From positions 160,001 to 224,000 of the forward strand of contig OZ219856.1 of the NCBI GenBank assembly GCA_964291395.2: a stretch of DNA of 64,000 nt, read 5' to 3'. A program made the translations under genes and the position numbers. The notes below the pieces were generated by a model. The model had not been told where the DNA came from. It saw nothing but the letters and a program-made list of their open reading frames with translations, and did not search any database. The DNA is from Alphaproteobacteria bacterium. GTDB taxonomy: Bacteria > Pseudomonadota > Alphaproteobacteria > UBA2966. Of this stretch, positions 39,212 through 46,366 are shown one piece after another (within the stretch, counting starts at the first letter, position 1; each line of letters starts with the position of its first letter).

Positions 39212-39391
39212 ATGGAGCTGCTCTATTTCACGGTCGTGGCGGTCGCGCTCTACTTCGTCTCCGACTGGATCGTCGATCGCATCGAGCATGCGGCGGGCCG
39301 TCGTTTCGAACACCGTACGCTGCTCTTCTTCGCCGTCATCCTCGCTCTCGGGACTGTCGCCTTCTGGCTGATCCGAACGCTATCGAGTTGA
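39212..39391 (+). CDS. Small two-TM membrane protein (59 aa, absent from the ORF track)
   Basis: MELLYFTVVAVALYFVSDWIVDRIEHAAGRRFEHRTLLFFAVILALGTVAFWLIRTLSS*. Confidence 0.75.
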   Translation: MELLYFTVVAVALYFVSDWIVDRIEHAAGRRFEHRTLLFFAVILALGTVAFWLIRTLSS

Positions 39392-39401
39392 TCTAAATCA
39401 A
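39388..39401. promoter_or_regulatory. FNR/FixK/DNR-type box upstream of the oxidase operon
   Basis: TTGATCTAAATCAA is a perfect TTGAT-N4-ATCAA; -10-like TAGGGT at 39424-39429 fits class II spacing. Confidence 0.85.
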
Positions 39402-39494
39402 TCAGGGCTTTCCACCGGCTTGCTAGGGTGCCCCGGTCGGGCGCCTCTCCCCGACTCGAGCGTGTCGCGGCGAGGCCGAGAGAGGGGACGAATC

Positions 39495-39671
39495 ATGACG
39501 GATACCGGTCAAGACACGAGAGCGTCGGATCAGCCGGCCGAGCGCGTGCCCTTCATGCAGCGCCTGCTGGACAATCCGTTCCTGCTGCTCTTCCTCGGGG
39601 TCGCCGTGCCGGCGGTCCTCTATCTCATGTGGGGGATCATGGAGGTCGCCCAGATCCCCATCGCGCCGTAG
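39495..39671 (+). CDS. Small single-TM subunit (subunit IIa-like) of the heme-copper complex
   Basis: 58 aa; PFMQRLLDNPFLLLFLG...WGIMEV; directly precedes subunit II. Confidence 0.75.
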   Translation: MTDTGQDTRASDQPAERVPFMQRLLDNPFLLLFLGVAVPAVLYLMWGIMEVAQIPIAP

Positions 39672-39686
39672 GCCGGAGGGACCGAC

Positions 39687-40232
39687 ATGGCCATACATCC
39701 GCCCGAAAAACGCATTTGGTGGAACGAGCCCCTCGAAAGATCAGAAGTCACGTGGATCACCATCGCTTTCATCTGGGGCCTGGTGATGTTCTTCACCATG
39801 GTGTTCTGGCACTTCACCGGCGAACAGAACCTCTCCAACGAGGCCTACCGTATCCACCCCGAGACCTTCGCCGAGCGCACCGAGGCGATGGCCGACCAAT
39901 ATACGGTCCGCGAAGAGGGCGACACCGGTATCCCGGTGGTCCATCCGCCGCCGGGAAGCGACGTTTACATGTTGGCGCGCCTTTGGGAATGGTGGCCGAT
40001 CCTCGAACTGGAGGAGGGTAAGGACTATCGCCTGCACCTCTCCTCGATGGATTGGCAGCACGGTTTCTCGCTGCAGCCCGAAAACATCAACATCCAGGTC
40101 CATCCGGGCTACGAGCTCGTGTTGACGCTCACGCCCGAGGGCGTCGGGGAATACGGGGTCGTTTGCAACGAATTCTGCGGGATCGGCCACCACCAGATGG
40201 TGGGAAAGATCTACGTGGTGGAAGCGAAATAG
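39687..40232 (+). CDS. Heme-copper oxidoreductase subunit II (CuA, single TM)
   Basis: DWQHGF and CNEFCGIGHHQM CuA motifs. Confidence 0.93.
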   Translation: MAIHPPEKRIWWNEPLERSEVTWITIAFIWGLVMFFTMVFWHFTGEQNLSNEAYRIHPETFAERTEAMADQYTVREEGDTGIPVVHPPPGSDVYMLARLWEWWPILELEEGKDYRLHLSSMDWQHGFSLQPENINIQVHPGYELVLTLTPEGVGEYGVVCNEFCGIGHHQMVGKIYVVEAK

Positions 40233-40242
40233 GGGGCGCGTC

Positions 40243-41967
40243 ATGGCGAGCATCGCAGATACCGGTACCCTGCCGAGGGCCGCCGAGTTTCGAACGTGTC
40301 CCGACACCGGCCTCAAGATCGACCTCGCGGCCGAGAAGCTAATCCGCTGGAACGCGGTCGTTGCCGTGGTGTTCCTCGCCATCGGCGGTTTTTTCGGCCT
40401 GCTGGTGGCGCTGACCCGCTGGCCAGCGGTCCATCTGTTGCCGGCGGAGTGGTTCTACCTGGCGCTGACGGCGCACGGCGCCGACGTGCTGCTGTTCTGG
40501 GTCATCTTTTTCGAGATCGCCATCCTCTACTTCGCTTCGGCGGTTCTGCTCAACAGTCGCCTCGCGACCCCGCGGATCGCTTGGCTCGGGTTCTGGCTCA
40601 TGCTGGCCGGCGCCCTTCTCGCCAACGTGGCGGTGCTACAAGGCGAGTCGAGCGTCATGTTCACGTCCTATGTGCCCATGCAGGCGGCGCCCCACTTCTA
40701 TCTAGGCCTGATCCTCTTCGCCGTCGGGGCTTTGGTTGCCGTCGCCGTGTTCTTCGGCACGCTGGTCATCGCGAAGGATGAGGGCACCTACGAGGGATCG
40801 GTGCCATTGGTCACATTCGGTGCCATCGCCGCGGCGGTTATCGCGGTCTTCACCATCACCTCGGGTGCCATCATTCTCATTCCCACCTTCTTCTGGTCGA
40901 TCGGCATCATCAGTCACATCGATCCGGTGATGTACAAGGTCGTGTGGTGGGGCATGGGCCACTCCTCGCAGCAGATCAACGTCTCGGCCCACGTCGCGGT
41001 GTGGTATGCCATCGCCGCCATGGTGCTGGGCGCCAAGCCGCTATCGGAGAAGGTGAGCCGTTTCGCCTTCCTCATGTACATCCTGTTCCTGCAGATCGCC
41101 GCGGCGCACCACCTTCTGGTGGAACCGGGTATCAGTTCGGAATGGAAGATCTTCAATACGAGCTACGCGCTCTACCTTGCCGTGCTCGGCAGCCTCATCC
41201 ACGGCCTCAGCGTCCCCGGTGCCATCGAGGCGGCCCAGCGCCGCCGTGGCTTCACCAAGGGCGTGTTCGAATGGTTGCGCAAGGCGCCGTGGGGTAATCC
41301 GGCCTTCTCCGGGATGTTCCTGTCGCTCGTCATGTTCGGTTTCCTCGGCGGCATCTCCGGCGTGGTGCTCGGCTCGGAGCAGATCAACCTGATCCTGCAC
41401 AACACCATGTACGTGCCTGGTCATTTCCACGGCACCGTCGTTGCCGGAACGACGCTCGCCTTCATGGCCATCACCTATCTCGTGGTGCCGCTGATTTTCC
41501 GCCGCGAGATCATGTTCAAGAAAGTCGCCCAGTGGCAGCCGTACGTCTTCGGTCTCGGCGTCGCAGGCATATCGCTGTTCATGATGGGGGCGGGTACGCT
41601 CGGCGTCAGTCGGCGCCACTGGGACATCACCTTCTCCGATGCCCCCGTGACCTTCGACTATCCCGGCACGGCTTTCCTGATGATGGGGCTGAACGGCGTG
41701 TTCGGCGTCCTCGCGGCTTTGGGTGGCCTGATGTATGTCGTGGTCGTGGTCTGGTCCGTCTTCTTCGGGGAACGACGAACCGAGGAGAAAGCGCGGGCCG
41801 AGCCGTTGCTGCCCCAGGACGGCGCGGCGGCGGTTGCGACCTACGGCAGCGAGGGCACCCTCAAGCTGCCGGGCACGATCACGCTTGTCGCGGTCTTCTT
41901 CGTGGCTTTTGTCCTCTACTACTTCGTCAACTGGAAGTTCCTGTCGGAAGTCTGGCCCTTGAGTTGA
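40243..41967 (+). CDS. Heme-copper oxidoreductase subunit I, probable eNOR-type nitric oxide reductase
   Basis: Six His ligands present (TAHG, GHSSQQ, AHHL, GHFHG); Gln at the position of the cross-linked Tyr. Confidence 0.8.
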   Translation: MASIADTGTLPRAAEFRTCPDTGLKIDLAAEKLIRWNAVVAVVFLAIGGFFGLLVALTRWPAVHLLPAEWFYLALTAHGADVLLFWVIFFEIAILYFASAVLLNSRLATPRIAWLGFWLMLAGALLANVAVLQGESSVMFTSYVPMQAAPHFYLGLILFAVGALVAVAVFFGTLVIAKDEGTYEGSVPLVTFGAIAAAVIAVFTITSGAIILIPTFFWSIGIISHIDPVMYKVVWWGMGHSSQQINVSAHVAVWYAIAAMVLGAKPLSEKVSRFAFLMYILFLQIAAAHHLLVEPGISSEWKIFNTSYALYLAVLGSLIHGLSVPGAIEAAQRRRGFTKGVFEWLRKAPWGNPAFSGMFLSLVMFGFLGGISGVVLGSEQINLILHNTMYVPGHFHGTVVAGTTLAFMAITYLVVPLIFRREIMFKKVAQWQPYVFGLGVAGISLFMMGAGTLGVSRRHWDITFSDAPVTFDYPGTAFLMMGLNGVFGVLAALGGLMYVVVVVWSVFFGERRTEEKARAEPLLPQDGAAAVATYGSEGTLKLPGTITLVAVFFVAFVLYYFVNWKFLSEVWPLS

Positions 41968-41982
41968 GCGGAGGCGCTCGGC

Positions 41983-42849
41983 ATGGTAGCGGTTGTCAGG
42001 GAGCTTTACGGTGTCTTCAAGCTGCGTATCGGATTCGCGATCGCGCTGAGCGCGGCGGCAGGTCTCGCGGCGACGCCCGGACCATCCATCCCGTTCTGGA
42101 ACGCTACGGCTCTCGTCCTGGCCGTGTTGCTCGCAGCCGCGAGCGCCGGCGCTTTCAACCAATTCGCCGAGCGCGATCTCGATGCGCGCATGGTCCGCAC
42201 CCGCGGACGGCCCTTCGTCTCGGGCCGGTTTACCGCCGGGCCTTTCTGGCTTGCCATCATCGGTGGACTGCTTGTGTTTTCGGTGATGCTGGCCGCCTGG
42301 GCCACCAACGTAGTGGCCGCCACGCACGTGTTCCTCGGCGCCTTCGTGTACGGCGTCGTCTACACCGTGTGGCTCAAGCGCCGCACCTGGCTCAACATCG
42401 TCGTCGGAGGTCTGTCGGGAAGTTTCGCGGTGCTGGCCGGTGCAGCGGCCGTCGATGCGAATCTCTCCGCCGTGCCGGTCTGCCTCGCAATCGTTCTGTT
42501 CCTCTGGACGCCTCCGCATTTCTGGAGCTTGGCGATGGCGCTGCGCGAGGACTATGCCCGGGCCGAGGTGCCCATGCTGCCGATCGTTGTCGGCGATGTA
42601 CGGGCGGCCAAGGTCATTCTTGCCCATACGGTGGTGCTCGTCGCCTTGTCGTTGATGCCTTTCATCTACGGGCTTGGCCTCGTCTATCTCGCGTTGGCGG
42701 TGATCGGCGGCTGGGTTTTCGTCGAGAAGAGCATCGCCCTCGTACGCACACCCGGACCTGCGGCGGCGCGCGCGAACTTCAAAGCCTCGCTGCTGCAGCT
42801 CTCGTTGATTCTGGTCGGCGCCATGGCGGACGCATGGTTGCCCTTGTAA
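41983..42849 (+). CDS. ctaB: Protoheme IX farnesyltransferase (heme O synthase)
   Basis: ERDLDARMVRTRGRP, YTVWLKRRT, FLWTPPHFWSLA. Confidence 0.93.
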   Translation: MVAVVRELYGVFKLRIGFAIALSAAAGLAATPGPSIPFWNATALVLAVLLAAASAGAFNQFAERDLDARMVRTRGRPFVSGRFTAGPFWLAIIGGLLVFSVMLAAWATNVVAATHVFLGAFVYGVVYTVWLKRRTWLNIVVGGLSGSFAVLAGAAAVDANLSAVPVCLAIVLFLWTPPHFWSLAMALREDYARAEVPMLPIVVGDVRAAKVILAHTVVLVALSLMPFIYGLGLVYLALAVIGGWVFVEKSIALVRTPGPAAARANFKASLLQLSLILVGAMADAWLPL

Positions 42850-43661
42850 GTCGCTGCGCTTCGCGGGTCTTGACTGCGTTGTGCCTGTTCGCAGCCGTCC
42901 CGGGGCTGGCGGCACCGACAGCTCCCACCGCCTTCGATCCTGATCGGGCGCTCGCGGATAGCCAAGCGGCTCTGGGACGCACGCTCTCGGGCTACGAATT
43001 TCGTGACGCTTCGTTCCGACCGCTGACGCTTTCGGAGTTTCGCGGCCGACCGTTGCTGATCAACCTCGTCTATACGAGTTGTGCTTACGACTGTCCGCTT
43101 ATCATCGAGACGTTGGCCGAAGCCATCGATATCGCGCGCGAAGCAGTGGGCCCAGAGAGTTTCCAAGTGCTGACCGTTGGATTCGACACGCGCATGGATA
43201 CGCCGGAACGGATGCGCGAATTTGCCGCCAACCATGGCATTCGCGACGACGGCTGGCGTTTCGCCAGTGCCGAGCACGAGACCATTGCACGACTCTCGAA
43301 GGATGTGGGCTTCTTGTTCTTCCCTTCGGCAAAGGGCTTCGACCATATCGCTCAGACTACGCTCGTCGACGCCGACGGCGTCATCTACCGCCAGGTCTAC
43401 GGCGCTGGGTTCGATCCGCCCTTTCTGGTGGAGCCGCTGAAGGATCTGGTTTTCGGGCGCGAGAGCGTGCCGACGTCGCTCGAGGGGCTGATCAACCGCA
43501 TCCGCTTCTTTTGCACCATCTACGACCCGTCGAGCGGCCGCTACCGGTTCGACTACTCCCCCTTCATTGCCATCGCTGTCGGTATCGCCTCCCTCGGCGG
43601 GTTGGGCTTCGTCGTCGTGCGCGGTTGGCTCCGTCAGCGTCGCCCTCACGCGCGGTCCTGA
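42834..43661 (+). CDS. SCO1/SenC copper chaperone with C-terminal TM
   Basis: YTSCAYDCP (CxxxC), DTPE, FDH. Confidence 0.88.
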   Translation: MVALVSRCASRVLTALCLFAAVPGLAAPTAPTAFDPDRALADSQAALGRTLSGYEFRDASFRPLTLSEFRGRPLLINLVYTSCAYDCPLIIETLAEAIDIAREAVGPESFQVLTVGFDTRMDTPERMREFAANHGIRDDGWRFASAEHETIARLSKDVGFLFFPSAKGFDHIAQTTLVDADGVIYRQVYGAGFDPPFLVEPLKDLVFGRESVPTSLEGLINRIRFFCTIYDPSSGRYRFDYSPFIAIAVGIASLGGLGFVVVRGWLRQRRPHARS

Positions 43662-43679
43662 CGGGGCGAGGGCGGGCGT

Positions 43680-45269
43680 GTGACGGCGCTGCAGCATATC
43701 CTGCGGCCGGCCCTCTGGCGCTTCGACGATCTGTTGTCGCGTATTTTTGGGCCGGCCTGGAACCCCCTCTACAACCTCGGAGCGCTGGGTTTTTTCTTTT
43801 ACTGGATCGTCGCGATCAGCGGCATATACATCTACATCTTCTTCGATACCGGCGTTACCGAGGCTTACGACTCCGTCGCCTACATGACGGAGGACCAGTG
43901 GTACCTTGCCGGCGTGATGCGGAGCCTGCACCGCTACGCCTCGGACGCCCTGGTCGTCGTCATGGTGCTGCATCTGATCCGCGAGTTCACCTATGACCGC
44001 TACCGAGGCGCGCGTTGGTTCAGCTGGCTTACTGCCGTCCCGATAATTTTGTTCGTCCTCGCGGCCGGCATCACGGGCTACTGGCTGGTCTGGGACCAGC
44101 TTGCGCAGTACGTCGCCATTGCCACCACGGAATGGCTCGACTGGCTGCCCATCTTCGGTGAGCCCATCGCCCGCAACTTTCTGGCGCCCGACGCGCTCGA
44201 TGACCGTTTCTTCACTTTGCTCGTGTTCCTGCACATCGCCGTGCCGTTGCTGTTGCTGCTGGCATTGTGGATCCACCTGCAACGGGTGAGTCGGCCACGC
44301 GTCAACCCGCCGCGCGGTCTGGCCGCGGGTAGCTTCGCGGCGCTTCTCGCGCTCTCGTTCGCCATGCCGGCGACCAGTCACGCCCCCGCCGATCTGGCGA
44401 AGGTACCCACGGTCCTCGACCTCGACTGGTTCTACCTCGGGTTCCACCCGTTGATGGACGTGTGGTCCCGCGGCACGGCGTGGGCCACGGCCGCCGTGCT
44501 GACGCTGACGATTGCCGTCATGCCCTGGTTGCCTCCCTTTCGCCGCCCCGCGGCGGCGCGGGTCGATCTCGACAACTGCAACGGGTGTGCCCGCTGCGCC
44601 GAGGACTGCCCCTTCAACGCGATCTCGATGGAGCGCCGCAGTGACGGCAAACCGTTCGACCGGGAAGCGGTCGTCAAGAGCTCGCTGTGCGTGAGTTGCG
44701 GAATTTGCGCGGGGGCCTGTCCGACAGCGACTCCCTTCCGCCGCACCGGCGCCCTGGTCCCGGGGATCGAGCTGCCCCACGCCACGCTGGTGAGCCTGCG
44801 GGACGCACTCGATCGAAAGGCGGATACCGGTGGCCAACAGGTCTACCTCATCGCCTGCGAGCATGGGGCCAGGCGGGAGACGATCGGCCACCCGGACCTT
44901 GCCGTCGCCACGGTACCTTGCATCGGCGCCCTACCACCGTCGTTCATCGACTACCTGTTGAGCCGTTGCGGCGCGGCAGGCGTCTACCTGGCCGGATGCC
45001 CGCAGGGCAATTGCCACTTCCGCCTCGGCAACGCATGGACCGAGGCACGCCTCGAGGGACGGCGCGACCCGATCCTGCGCAAACGGGTTCCACGCGAACG
45101 GGTGTGCTGGGGCTGGTTCGCGCCCCATCAGTCGTCGGGGCTGTGGCGGTCCGTCGAGACGTTCCTCCGCGATGTTCGCGGTTTGCCTCCTCAGGAGGCT
45201 CCGTCCGTCCGACAGCTCAGCACCCGCTTCGACCGGTCGCGGGAAGAGGGAGGCGTTGGCGGTCCATGA
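43680..45269 (+). CDS. Cytochrome b + 2x[4Fe-4S] ferredoxin + MvhD/FlpD-like [2Fe-2S] fusion protein
   Basis: His pairs RSLH...VLH and FLH...WIH; GITGYWLVWDQ; CNGCARCAEDCP and CVSCGICAGACP; IACEHG...PCIG...GCPQGNCHFRLGN. Confidence 0.85.
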   Translation: MTALQHILRPALWRFDDLLSRIFGPAWNPLYNLGALGFFFYWIVAISGIYIYIFFDTGVTEAYDSVAYMTEDQWYLAGVMRSLHRYASDALVVVMVLHLIREFTYDRYRGARWFSWLTAVPIILFVLAAGITGYWLVWDQLAQYVAIATTEWLDWLPIFGEPIARNFLAPDALDDRFFTLLVFLHIAVPLLLLLALWIHLQRVSRPRVNPPRGLAAGSFAALLALSFAMPATSHAPADLAKVPTVLDLDWFYLGFHPLMDVWSRGTAWATAAVLTLTIAVMPWLPPFRRPAAARVDLDNCNGCARCAEDCPFNAISMERRSDGKPFDREAVVKSSLCVSCGICAGACPTATPFRRTGALVPGIELPHATLVSLRDALDRKADTGGQQVYLIACEHGARRETIGHPDLAVATVPCIGALPPSFIDYLLSRCGAAGVYLAGCPQGNCHFRLGNAWTEARLEGRRDPILRKRVPRERVCWGWFAPHQSSGLWRSVETFLRDVRGLPPQEAPSVRQLSTRFDRSREEGGVGGP

Positions 45270-45766
45270 CCAGTGCTTTCCGATATGTGGGCCAGGCCGC
45301 CGTGCTCGTCGCCTTTGCCGGGGTGGTCGGGTTCTTTTCCGGCGCTCCTTCTTTTCGCCATTTTCCCGAGGGGCAGGCCCTACTCAAGGTGAGCTTCGCG
45401 CATGGTGGCGCCCGTAGGGCGGAATGCCGGAAACGGACGCGGCGGGAGCTTGCGGAGATGGCGGCGAACATGCGGAAGGAGATGGATTGTCCTCGTGGAC
45501 GGGTAGACCTGAGGCTCGAGATCGACCTCGATGGAGCACCGCTCTACCAGGCGACGCTGCCGCCGACGGGGCTTGCGGGGGACGGCCCATCGCGCGTCTA
45601 CGAACGGTTTATGCTCCCCGCGGGTCGCCACGTTCTCCATCTTCGCTTGCGCGATTCCCGTCGGAATCAGGGGTTCGATCACGTCACGCGGAAGGTCGTG
45701 GAGCTCGCTGCCGGACAAAGTGTCGCCGTCGATTTCCACGTCGGCGAGGGATTCATCGTCCGATGA
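45266..45766 (+). CDS. Uncharacterised membrane-anchored protein with two Cys
   Basis: N-terminal TM; ECRKR...MDCPRGR; ATGA overlap with the upstream gene. Confidence 0.8.
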   Translation: MTSAFRYVGQAAVLVAFAGVVGFFSGAPSFRHFPEGQALLKVSFAHGGARRAECRKRTRRELAEMAANMRKEMDCPRGRVDLRLEIDLDGAPLYQATLPPTGLAGDGPSRVYERFMLPAGRHVLHLRLRDSRRNQGFDHVTRKVVELAAGQSVAVDFHVGEGFIVR

Positions 45767-45803
45767 CCGCTGGGCCAGGCAGGACTGTCGAGGGAGGTCC
45801 ATC

Positions 45804-46211
45804 ATGGCGCTGATCCCGTGGCGAGAGGCGTTCGAGATCGGGATCGAGTCGGTCGATCACGAGCACCGCGAGTTGATAGACCTTATCAACCAACTCCATG
45901 ACCGGCTCGATCATAGTGCCGCGCCGGAGATCGTCGCCGGTTTTCTCGGTGAGATCTATGCGCGCATCTCCGCGCATTTCGCCCTCGAGGAAAGAGTCAT
46001 GCGCGAGCTCGAGTACGACGACTACGCGGATCACAAGGATGACCATGAAGCCCTGCTGGACGATATCAGGGACATCATGGATGTCTTCGACGAGGGCGGC
46101 TATGTGGACTTGCAGGAGGATTTGGGAGACCAACTCGAAACGTGGTTCGGTGGACATTTCCGCACGAAAGACGCCCGCCTTCACACCTTCCTCGAAGACA
46201 GGGGCGCTTGA
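45804..46211 (+). CDS. Bacteriohemerythrin (single domain)
   Basis: WREAFEIGIESVDHEH, HFALEE, HKDDH, WFGGHFRTKD; GGAGG RBS. Confidence 0.92.
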   Translation: MALIPWREAFEIGIESVDHEHRELIDLINQLHDRLDHSAAPEIVAGFLGEIYARISAHFALEERVMRELEYDDYADHKDDHEALLDDIRDIMDVFDEGGYVDLQEDLGDQLETWFGGHFRTKDARLHTFLEDRGA

Positions 46212-46221
46212 TCGAAATCAA
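46208..46221. promoter_or_regulatory. Second FNR-type box at the 3' end of the operon
   Basis: TTGATCGAAATCAA, perfect consensus, overlapping the hemerythrin stop codon. Confidence 0.7.
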
Positions 46222-46338
46222 GGATGGCGGCGCGCCCCGCATCCATGAATGGAGCGTCGCCCGATGCTCCGGGTGCGCTGGATTGTAGTGGTGGAAGAAA
46301 CCGTCACGGGAGTGGCACAACATGTCGCAGCCGCCTCT

Positions 46339-46366
46339 TTGACACACCGGCGACGAACGGGATAAT
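46339..46366 (+). promoter_or_regulatory. Putative sigma70 promoter
   Basis: TTGACA-N16-GATAAT, 36 bp upstream of the ATG at 46403. Confidence 0.55.

Follow-up and report, generated by a model that had tools for sequence, protein, structure and literature searches.

A nine-gene eNOR operon in an alphaproteobacterium and the cytochrome b-FeS-FlpD module that accompanies one large eNOR branch

The 64,000-nucleotide stretch analysed here (the window) comes from an Alphaproteobacteria bacterium of the UBA2966 lineage (assembly GCA_964291395.2, contig OZ219856.1, positions 160,001 to 224,000), and its positions 39,212 to 46,221 hold a gene cluster built around an eNOR, a nitric oxide (NO) reductase of the heme-copper superfamily. 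A preliminary description of this locus had listed nine genes on one strand, tightly packed from the IIa-like gene on, with a perfect FNR-type box ahead of that gene. All nine open reading frames and the box were confirmed (Table 1), as was the packing, with intergenic gaps of 15, 10, 15, -22, 18, -4 and 37 bp from the IIa-like gene to the hemerythrin gene; the gap between the microprotein and IIa-like genes is 103 bp. The nine-gene operon is real, its core is an ordinary eNOR, and its accessory module, which is found throughout a clade, is partly in print. The GC content of the operon resembles that of the remainder of the window. Its nearest public relatives are from uncultured Alphaproteobacteria, and near-identical sequence was found in sponge and other marine sequencing runs. 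A cultured Defluviimonas strain also carries the complete operon, in the same order and with the microprotein not annotated, on a plasmid of 165 kb (L095, NZ_CP156080.1), which makes this strain a possible test system.

Table 1. Genes and sequence features of the eNOR locus (positions in the window).
Feature	Position	Strand	Basis
59-aa microprotein with two transmembrane helices	39212-39391	+	Hydropathy; no family match
Crp/Fnr-type palindrome TTGAT-N4-ATCAA, perfect	39388-39401	.	Motif scan
Subunit IIa-like protein, single transmembrane helix	39495-39671	+	No family match; kept in relatives
eNOR subunit II, CuA	39687-40232	+	TIGR02866 weak match; ligands invariant
eNOR subunit I	40243-41967	+	COX1 family; eNOR residues
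Heme O synthase (cyoE/ctaB)	41983-42849	+	TIGR01473 above cut-off
SCO protein with CxxxC, His173 and extra Cys229	42828-43661	+	PF02630
Di-heme cytochrome b (b6-like) + 2x[4Fe-4S] + FlpD/MvhD [2Fe-2S]	43680-45269	+	PF00033, PF00037, PF02662
166-aa two-Cys protein, membrane-anchored beta-sandwich (partner)	45266-45766	+	No family; AlphaFold model
Bacteriohemerythrin, complete di-iron ligands	45804-46211	+	NF033749 above cut-off
Second perfect Crp/Fnr-type palindrome, overlapping the hemerythrin stop codon	46208-46221	.	Motif scan

The eNOR identity proposed for the core is supported by residues in both large subunits. Subunit I reads H240-S-S-Q-Q244 where the aligned ba3 oxidase has His-x3-Tyr, and Gln at the position of the cross-linked Tyr is regarded as diagnostic of eNOR (PMC8756737). 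It also has H289/H290, and its heme ligands are H78, H394 and H396. For the R. marinus eNOR the residues Q245, Y256, S318 and H321, and E21 of subunit II, have been reported (PMC11214002); Q244 and the K-channel residues Y255, S317 and H320 are spaced exactly as in that published residue list, which was what we compared. In subunit II, the K-channel entry residue Glu20 is invariant in 87 sequences, as is the full CuA motif (H125, C160, E162, C164, H168, M171). The nearest solved relatives of subunit I are ba3 oxidases of the B family. In a quick tree, a Gln-type clade joins subunit I with a haloarchaeal protein (SH-aLRT 99) and leaves the Tyr-type relatives apart, and a FastTree search likewise groups it with Gln-type sequences; the R. 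marinus reference itself is absent from both trees. Membership of the B-family O2 reductases (ba3) was rejected, given the Gln in place of a His-Tyr cross-link, and Q244 at the Tyr position also excludes the sNOR and bNOR families (Asn) and the nNOR family (Glu; PMC11214002 Dataset S1).

The first four structural genes encode an eNOR-family heme-copper enzyme, which likely reduces NirK-derived NO to nitrous oxide (N2O), an activity carried over from the R. marinus enzyme, which reduced NO and not O2 (PMC11214002). The genome holds two heme-copper subunit I genes, that of the operon and a much higher-scoring oxidase elsewhere, and the former is its sole NO-reductase candidate. NirK scores above its cut-off, neither a cd1 nitrite reductase nor NosZ was found in the genome, and a single heme A synthase gene and a normal cytochrome b of the bc1 type lie away from the operon. 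Among 50 genomes drawn from the 80 best genome loci (the close set), NirK is encoded in 10, a cd1-domain gene in 38 and one or both in 45, a count made with no random control and in which the cd1-domain matches include NirN/NirF. The IIa-like gene is present in 78 of the 80 loci and also in the eNOR operons of Thermus and Thermomicrobium. Six related-contig identifiers gave no match to the accessions of Murali Dataset S6, an uninformative result.

That the enzyme reduces O2 with high affinity or acts on some other substrate, the operon being a unit of micro-oxic respiration, is very improbable. Its B-family ancestry, its public annotation as cytochrome c oxidase and the five of 50 related genomes with no nitrite reductase gene would suit such a role, and an Accumulibacter 'ba3' operon, which we infer to be an eNOR operon, was placed among the genes that were higher in oxygen (PMC6446978). 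However, Gln stands in place of the cross-linked Tyr that O2 reduction requires, and the R. marinus result speaks for NO.

Two further sets of conserved residues were seen in the core. Cys19 of subunit I (window 40297-40299) lies in an N-terminal R-x-C-x-x-T-G motif that is invariant in 78/78 close eNORs and also occurs in distant eNORs and some Tyr-type relatives; a role as a ligand specific to the accessory module was excluded, since the residue is present in Thermus, Thermomicrobium and Tyr-type relatives. Subunit II keeps His42 and His117, which are not among its CuA ligands, in 77/77 close relatives.

The accessory genes had been proposed to form a unit with subunit I of the HSSQQ type, and a gene-neighbourhood survey bears out that the distal genes co-occur with it. 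Of the 80 loci of the close set, 73 contain SCO, 70 the cytochrome b, 67 heme O synthase, 66 the two-Cys gene, 62 hemerythrin and 43 the microprotein. Once the 19 loci with less than 4.5 kb of downstream sequence are set aside, SCO and the cytochrome b are present in all 61 that remain, the partner in 60, hemerythrin in 57 (scored anywhere in the locus) and heme O synthase in 53; the single missing partner belongs to a locus with a run of N inside its cytochrome b gene. Among 400 genomes sampled across the phylum, 32 encode subunit I, 32 the cytochrome b-FeS-FlpD fusion and 31 both, these being kin in 11 families outside the window's class and not 31 independent events. The contig of the one eNOR-only genome ends right after SCO, and that of the one genome with cytochrome b alone is 5.3 kb long, with heme O synthase ahead of the cytochrome b. 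At least eight of the 31 have a genuinely split operon, in which SCO is followed by unrelated genes and the cytochrome b is found 12-930 kb away or on another contig, the extreme being genome G060, where 930 kb of one contig separate the two. We fetched 16 loci around such split-off cytochrome b genes and found the partner after it in 16/16 and the microprotein in 13/16, often near nirS.

A metagenome scan seeded with a 54%-identical eNOR gave 80 loci, of which 32 have 5 kb downstream; together with two plasmid loci these make 34 wider loci, which comprise a clade at 50-58% identity and some loci that are closer. SCO, the cytochrome b and the partner occur together in 31 of the 34. Here the cytochrome b and partner are mostly joined in one fusion of 650-780 aa, and such fusions are also found in the protein database, so that the partner is a natural fusion companion of the cytochrome b. 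The module-bearing eNORs form one clade (local support 1.0), outside which fall the Thermus and Thermomicrobium enzymes, whose operons lack the module, and the haloarchaeal protein. The distal genes therefore stay with one large eNOR branch even where the operon splits. All-against-all clustering used a filtered set of reading frames from which some true genes, such as the Arg-rich partner, had been dropped, and a look-up in the ESM Atlas returned hypothetical clusters and one cluster with 33% FlpD members.

Other genes recur around these operons. NosR-like (14/80) and ApbE (13/80) genes flank the eNOR operon, for example in L007, L014, L025, L026, L035, L040, L052 and L056. In 23 of the 34 wider loci, a degenerate membrane protein resembling COX1 and about 460-490 aa long is encoded (PF00115, 49 bits; for example L126:12564-13949, L149:179-1624 and L211:15474-16838). 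The window does not encode this protein, which may correspond to the 'eNOR scaffold protein' named in a preprint on Ferrigenium, a guess on our part.

In the cytochrome b-FeS-FlpD protein, the membrane part has cytochrome b6 as its best solved relative, and the soluble part HdrA/MvhD, the cytoplasmic portion resembling the ferredoxin-MvhD end of HdrA (E 7e-20). The six-helix topology was taken from homology; plain hydropathy called only four helices. The four heme-ligand His, shared with cytochrome b6 plus subunit IV and with bc1 cytochrome b, are kept in 103/103 sequences, both ferredoxin motifs are intact, and the FlpD cysteines are kept in 100-103/103, the fourth being variable in a distant clade. 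In contrast to b6 and bc1, the protein has no Rieske or c1/f partner, has Fe-S domains fused to it, lacks the heme ci Cys and the Qi-type residues, and has a remodelled Qo site. The Qo motif is L-D-W-F, in which Asp249 and Trp250 are invariant (103/103) and the first residue is Leu, not Pro, in 79/103. The Qo glycine position holds V, I or L in 101/103, and the Qo Tyr is missing in the distant clade. The bc1/b6f reference numbering behind the Qo, Qi and heme ci assignments is one that we assume. No Rieske or c1 gene lies in the operon, which sets the protein apart from the Rieske/cytochrome b complexes (bc1, b6f).

With its xDWF motif, 4Fe-4S and MvhD domains and no Rieske gene in the operon, the protein falls in with the PDWF-FeS clade, described as cytochromes b with an xDWF Qo motif, 4Fe-4S and MvhD and without a Rieske protein (Kao & Hunte 2014, PMC4122944). 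The available text of that paper gives neither an eNOR link nor a function (PMC4122944). Turneriella and Alicycliphilus, two genera that it gives as examples, also represent eNOR in Murali Dataset S4, and Magnetospirillum is named as an eNOR carrier (PMC11214002). Paralogues of the cytochrome b were seen in a few loci. In L209 (15396-17711) a second cytochrome b adjoins the module; by motif reading, its end consists of a plant-type ferredoxin plus an FAD/NAD-binding reductase, pointing to an NAD(P)H end in the cytoplasm. In a small-genome family (L104, L125-L129, L145), two tandem cytochrome b-FeS-FlpD paralogues precede the partner gene, which suggests a cytochrome b heterodimer, and in five loci of this family a COX1-like gene and ctaA follow the tandem module.

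The partner, the 'two-Cys' protein of the preliminary description, was modelled with AlphaFold (pLDDT 94, pTM 0.76) as one transmembrane helix and a beta-sandwich with an inserted helical loop, the ends of which bear Cys54 and Cys75. Read from the modelled strand bridges, the two cysteines likely pair as a structural disulfide. They are jointly lost in 3/90 partner sequences and each is kept in 11/27 distant fusions, whereas Arg70, Arg77, Arg79, Gly102 and Asp106 persist where the cysteines vary. A structural disulfide on a docking protein fits this pattern better than a thiol relay, and the idea of an essential dithiol relay was given up because the cysteines are dispensable. No invariant metal-ligand set was found among the partner sequences aligned, and kinship with subunit II as a cupredoxin was rejected (no profile match, probability 0.2%). 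Fold matches were non-significant (Ig chain, E 1.5), the fold assignment resting on modelled secondary structure, and carboxypeptidase-regulatory-like and X25 domain matches appeared in 2-3 of the 90 members at E > 0.01.

These features bear on whether the module is a Rieske-less respiratory partner of eNOR, in which quinol would be oxidised at the remodelled Qo site, one electron passing to CuA and the other inward to NAD+ or ferredoxin, with reverse electron flow in a supercomplex. We consider this unlikely. The invariant Qo Asp/Trp and absent Qi residues agree with it, as do the HdrA ferredoxin-MvhD-like cytoplasmic part, the NAD-module paralogue of L209 and a co-inheritance with eNOR as tight as for a subunit; the same idea was advanced for Ferrigenium, whose proteome contains all four proteins (bioRxiv 10.64898/2026.01.22.701106, section 6.5.2). 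Against this, the Qo Gly position is bulky in 101/103 and the Qo Tyr is lost in the distant clade, the partner lacks a high-potential cofactor to judge from its missing metal-ligand set, and the genome has a normal bc1 cytochrome b. Purified R. marinus eNOR gave two bands according to a figure legend, which bears on the R. marinus enzyme alone. A more far-reaching form, which we regard as improbable, would make the Rieske-less cytochrome b complex, with partner and microprotein, permanent subunits of eNOR/SCO and couple NO reduction to Qo bifurcation toward NAD+ or ferredoxin, giving an energy-conserving denitrification supercomplex of a new kind in many phyla.

The SCO protein carries C85, C89, H173 and C229 in 87/87 sequences, the third cysteine, Cys229, being situated in a hairpin that adjoins the C-terminal transmembrane helix. 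In the distant clade, the Cys hairpin and membrane helices are placed N-terminal of the SCO domain, a domain permutation. The third Cys was nevertheless found in 58 of 59 eNOR-adjacent SCO genes of the metagenome set (50 by pattern, eight by inspection), the remaining one being truncated. Its survival through the permutation is the strongest hint that a Cys at the membrane surface is the functional point. In two metagenome loci (L216:11711-12664, L219:1557-2510) an in-frame TGA stands in the eNOR-associated SCO gene precisely where the second Cys of CxxxC is encoded, with a hairpin predicted after it (-22.7 and -15.4 kcal/mol); these are likely selenocysteine (CxxxU) forms, as judged from the sequence.

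We tentatively read the module as a dedicated outward electron wire for the assembly or upkeep of the CuA site of eNOR, with a probability of about 0.45. The Fe-S clusters would lie inside and the partner and SCO outside, and electrons would flow from a cytoplasmic donor through the FlpD [2Fe-2S] cluster, the two [4Fe-4S] clusters, heme bH and heme bL to the outer face, where SCO Cys229 would accept them directly or via a copper site at the remodelled Qo pocket. The purpose would be maturation or upkeep, building CuA or keeping it reduced, and not bulk respiration. Such a wire is favoured over a bc1-like quinol cycle because the heme His and Fe-S Cys are kept, the Qi residues are absent, the Qo site is remodelled and the operon has no Rieske or c1 gene. 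The outward direction would explain the cytoplasmic Fe-S end, the NAD-module paralogue of L209, the redox-inert partner and the third SCO Cys. Since electrons running outward dissipate the membrane potential, such a path suits maturation at low flux. The cysteines of CuA need reduction before loading, by TlpA/ScoI (PMC7558416), and a membrane reductase with Fe-S clusters and a periplasmic Ig-like domain, CcoG, is encoded beside the cbb3 oxidase (PMC7558416). As an analogy of working, the cupric reductase CcoG/FixG, which serves cbb3 assembly, resembles the module in that it sits in the membrane, carries two [4Fe-4S] clusters and a beta-sandwich on the periplasmic side, and is encoded beside a heme-copper enzyme; unlike the module, it lacks both a di-heme cytochrome b and an MvhD domain. 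Family scans of the module proteins gave no match to the FixG family, and no sequence homology to CcoG was found.

Several observations weigh against this assignment. Where operons are split, SCO remains with the eNOR core and not with the cytochrome b, and the co-occurrence counts overstate independence because the sampled carriers are kin. An eNOR can be made without the module, since SCO and the module are absent from the eNOR operons of the Thermus and Thermomicrobium plasmids (the operons were inspected, the genomes not searched whole) and locus L194, inside the module clade, lacks them nearby. The invariant Qo Asp/Trp (103/103) leaves room for quinone chemistry, the genome encodes three other SCO-like proteins, and the operon in the window encodes no cytoplasmic donor. 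Ordinary CuA assembly needs no such wire.

The same outward path could instead serve everyday electron supply, in which low-potential cytoplasmic electrons would pass through the cytochrome b to CuA and bypass quinone and cytochrome c, so that NO is removed fast at the expense of membrane potential. The tight co-inheritance would be expected here as well, a cytochrome c gene is not a regular member of the operon (5/80 loci), and nirS, NosR-like and NnrS genes often flank the module. We nonetheless think it rather improbable, as it would be wasteful energetically for an enzyme that keeps a proton-uptake channel (PMC11214002) and would leave the invariant third SCO Cys unexplained.

Assembly of the CuA site, as we prefer, is not the only maturation step that the module could serve. 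It might instead reduce heme A synthase or hemerythrin and so supply heme A(s), O2 or Fe(II) to the binuclear site at low oxygen. The heme A of eNOR is a modified one and the enzyme requires micro-oxia (PMC11214002), ctaA comes after the module in the five loci of the small-genome family, the Thermomicrobium operon, which is without the module, holds a CtaA-CtaB fusion, and the di-iron ligand set of the hemerythrin is fully kept. However, an ordinary heme A synthase is encoded in 46 of 50 module-bearing genomes, so that the module is no substitute for this enzyme and was rejected as such. Genomes with only an aa3-type oxidase do without the module, which 368 of the 400 lack, and hemerythrin is missing from most wider loci. 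We judge this alternative quite improbable.

The remaining genes of the operon are less firmly attached to it. Hemerythrin had been presented as a member of the unit, and it is indeed present and tightly packed here and is found in most close loci, yet it is optional, as it was found in only 2/31 loci of the 400-genome set and 8/34 of the metagenome set. The heme O synthase is the second copy in the genome and is not obligatory, to judge from its presence in 53/61 untruncated loci. The microprotein was found in 24 of the 31 sampled-genome loci with the two-Cys gene, on the opposite strand around split-off cytochrome b genes, and in 5 of the 34 wider loci; it tracks the cytochrome b module more than the eNOR core.

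The preliminary description had called the cluster FNR-controlled. With one mismatch allowed, the window has four matches to TTGAT-N4-ATCAA against 0.53 expected, and the genome has five perfect boxes against about 2.1 expected, so that a single perfect box is modest evidence. In related loci, boxes with at most one mismatch lie upstream in 29 of 75 (12 perfect; five more loci were too short for the survey), mostly at around -300 relative to subunit II; of 2603 control windows, 67 have such a box (6 perfect). This enrichment, together with its position, makes the first box of Table 1 credible. It is about 41 bp upstream of a plausible start, with a TG-extended -10-like element at about 39421-39429 and, by eye, class II spacing; a promoter scan found neither a sigma-70 consensus site upstream of the IIa-like gene nor a convincing terminator. 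The box has decayed in the six closest relatives, and it may be a relic in the window genome, where no box was found upstream of nirK.

The Crp/Fnr genes of these genomes bear on which regulator would bind the box. In 30 of 80 loci such a gene adjoins the operon and encodes a protein without the FNR Cys cluster, with PET/PES-x-SR helices, that scores best to FtrB, under the cut-off. We take these to be DNR-like NO sensors. The sole Crp/Fnr protein with a helix-turn-helix in the genome (G000:C3:1246739-1247494, L086) has an FnrL-like Cys cluster and a VHVNR recognition helix without the usual Glu/Ser, and scores 138.7 bits against an FnrL cut-off of 300. No canonical FNR was found in the window genome, which is 98% complete and 9% contaminated. 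No cNMP-domain protein was found in the three of the six closest relatives that were tested, the assemblies of which are incomplete, and two more distant genomes gave 8 and 10 matches. Of the original claim, the Crp/Fnr-type box stands, while FNR itself is unproven, with no canonical FNR in the genome and the box lost in the closest relatives. Control by the Crp/Fnr family appears to be a clade-level feature; the operon would probably be switched on through a Crp/Fnr-type box and, in many relatives, by a DNR-like protein that responds to NO. For Accumulibacter, an FNR motif ahead of the 'ba3' operon had already been reported (PMC6446978).

A box similar to the second one follows hemerythrin in five related loci. 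In the window, this second box stands 130 bp before a near-consensus sigma-70 promoter (11/12) of a gene for a beta-keto acid cleavage enzyme (window 46208-46366). In four marine metatranscriptomes, contigs cover pieces of all the operon genes and bridge the IIa-II, II-I, I-cyoE, cyoE-SCO, cytochrome b-partner and partner-hemerythrin junctions. They cover flanking genes too, which is compatible with DNA carry-over and not diagnostic of one transcript.

Compared with described systems, the core resembles the eNOR of R. marinus and the 'cytochrome a1-like' enzyme of Magnetospirillum in its His-x3-Gln, K-channel Tyr/Ser/His, subunit II Glu, CuA and heme-modifying gene (PMC11214002). It differs from these in that its operon lacks ctaA and adds SCO, the cytochrome b-FeS-FlpD protein, the partner, the microprotein and hemerythrin, which the available text of that paper does not discuss. 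SCO was noted in the 'ba3-a1' operon of Magnetospirillum (Degli Esposti 2019, PMC6431628). The closest description is that of Ferrigenium straubiae, in which eNOR subunits II and I, heme O synthase, sco1 and a cytochrome b-[Fe-S] gene form an operon and a supercomplex was proposed (bioRxiv 10.64898/2026.01.22.701106). Unlike the window, with its one FlpD-type gene, Ferrigenium has two cytochrome b genes, one with FAD/NADH domains, and the available text of the preprint does not describe the partner, the third SCO Cys or the microprotein. The eNOR preprint, PMC8114936 and PMC8756737, as far as their text was available, hold nothing further on the module, and open-access literature listings returned no functional study of it and no mention of the partner or the third SCO Cys. 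The locus had been put forward as an undescribed system; this holds for its function, which is uncharacterised, and not for its parts, as the fusion was published in 2014 (PMC4122944) and its pairing with eNOR in the 2026 preprint.

eNOR is present in 547 of 47,894 GTDB genomes and is among the common N2O-producing enzymes (PMC11214002). The Ferrigenium preprint calls its pair of cytochrome b genes unusual and offers them as a Ferrigenium marker. The module is not specific to that genus, and the FlpD-type gene is the rule across a large eNOR clade. A defined small gene set thus goes with one large eNOR branch, and SCO Cys229, Asp139 and Asp249 of the cytochrome b, and Arg70, Arg77, Arg79 and Asp106 of the partner are singled out as residues of interest. 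If the module is a copper-loading wire, it would be a new route of CuA assembly and would probably be needed for active eNOR in heterologous expression. Should it act as a bifurcating partner instead, denitrification in these organisms would have different energetics.

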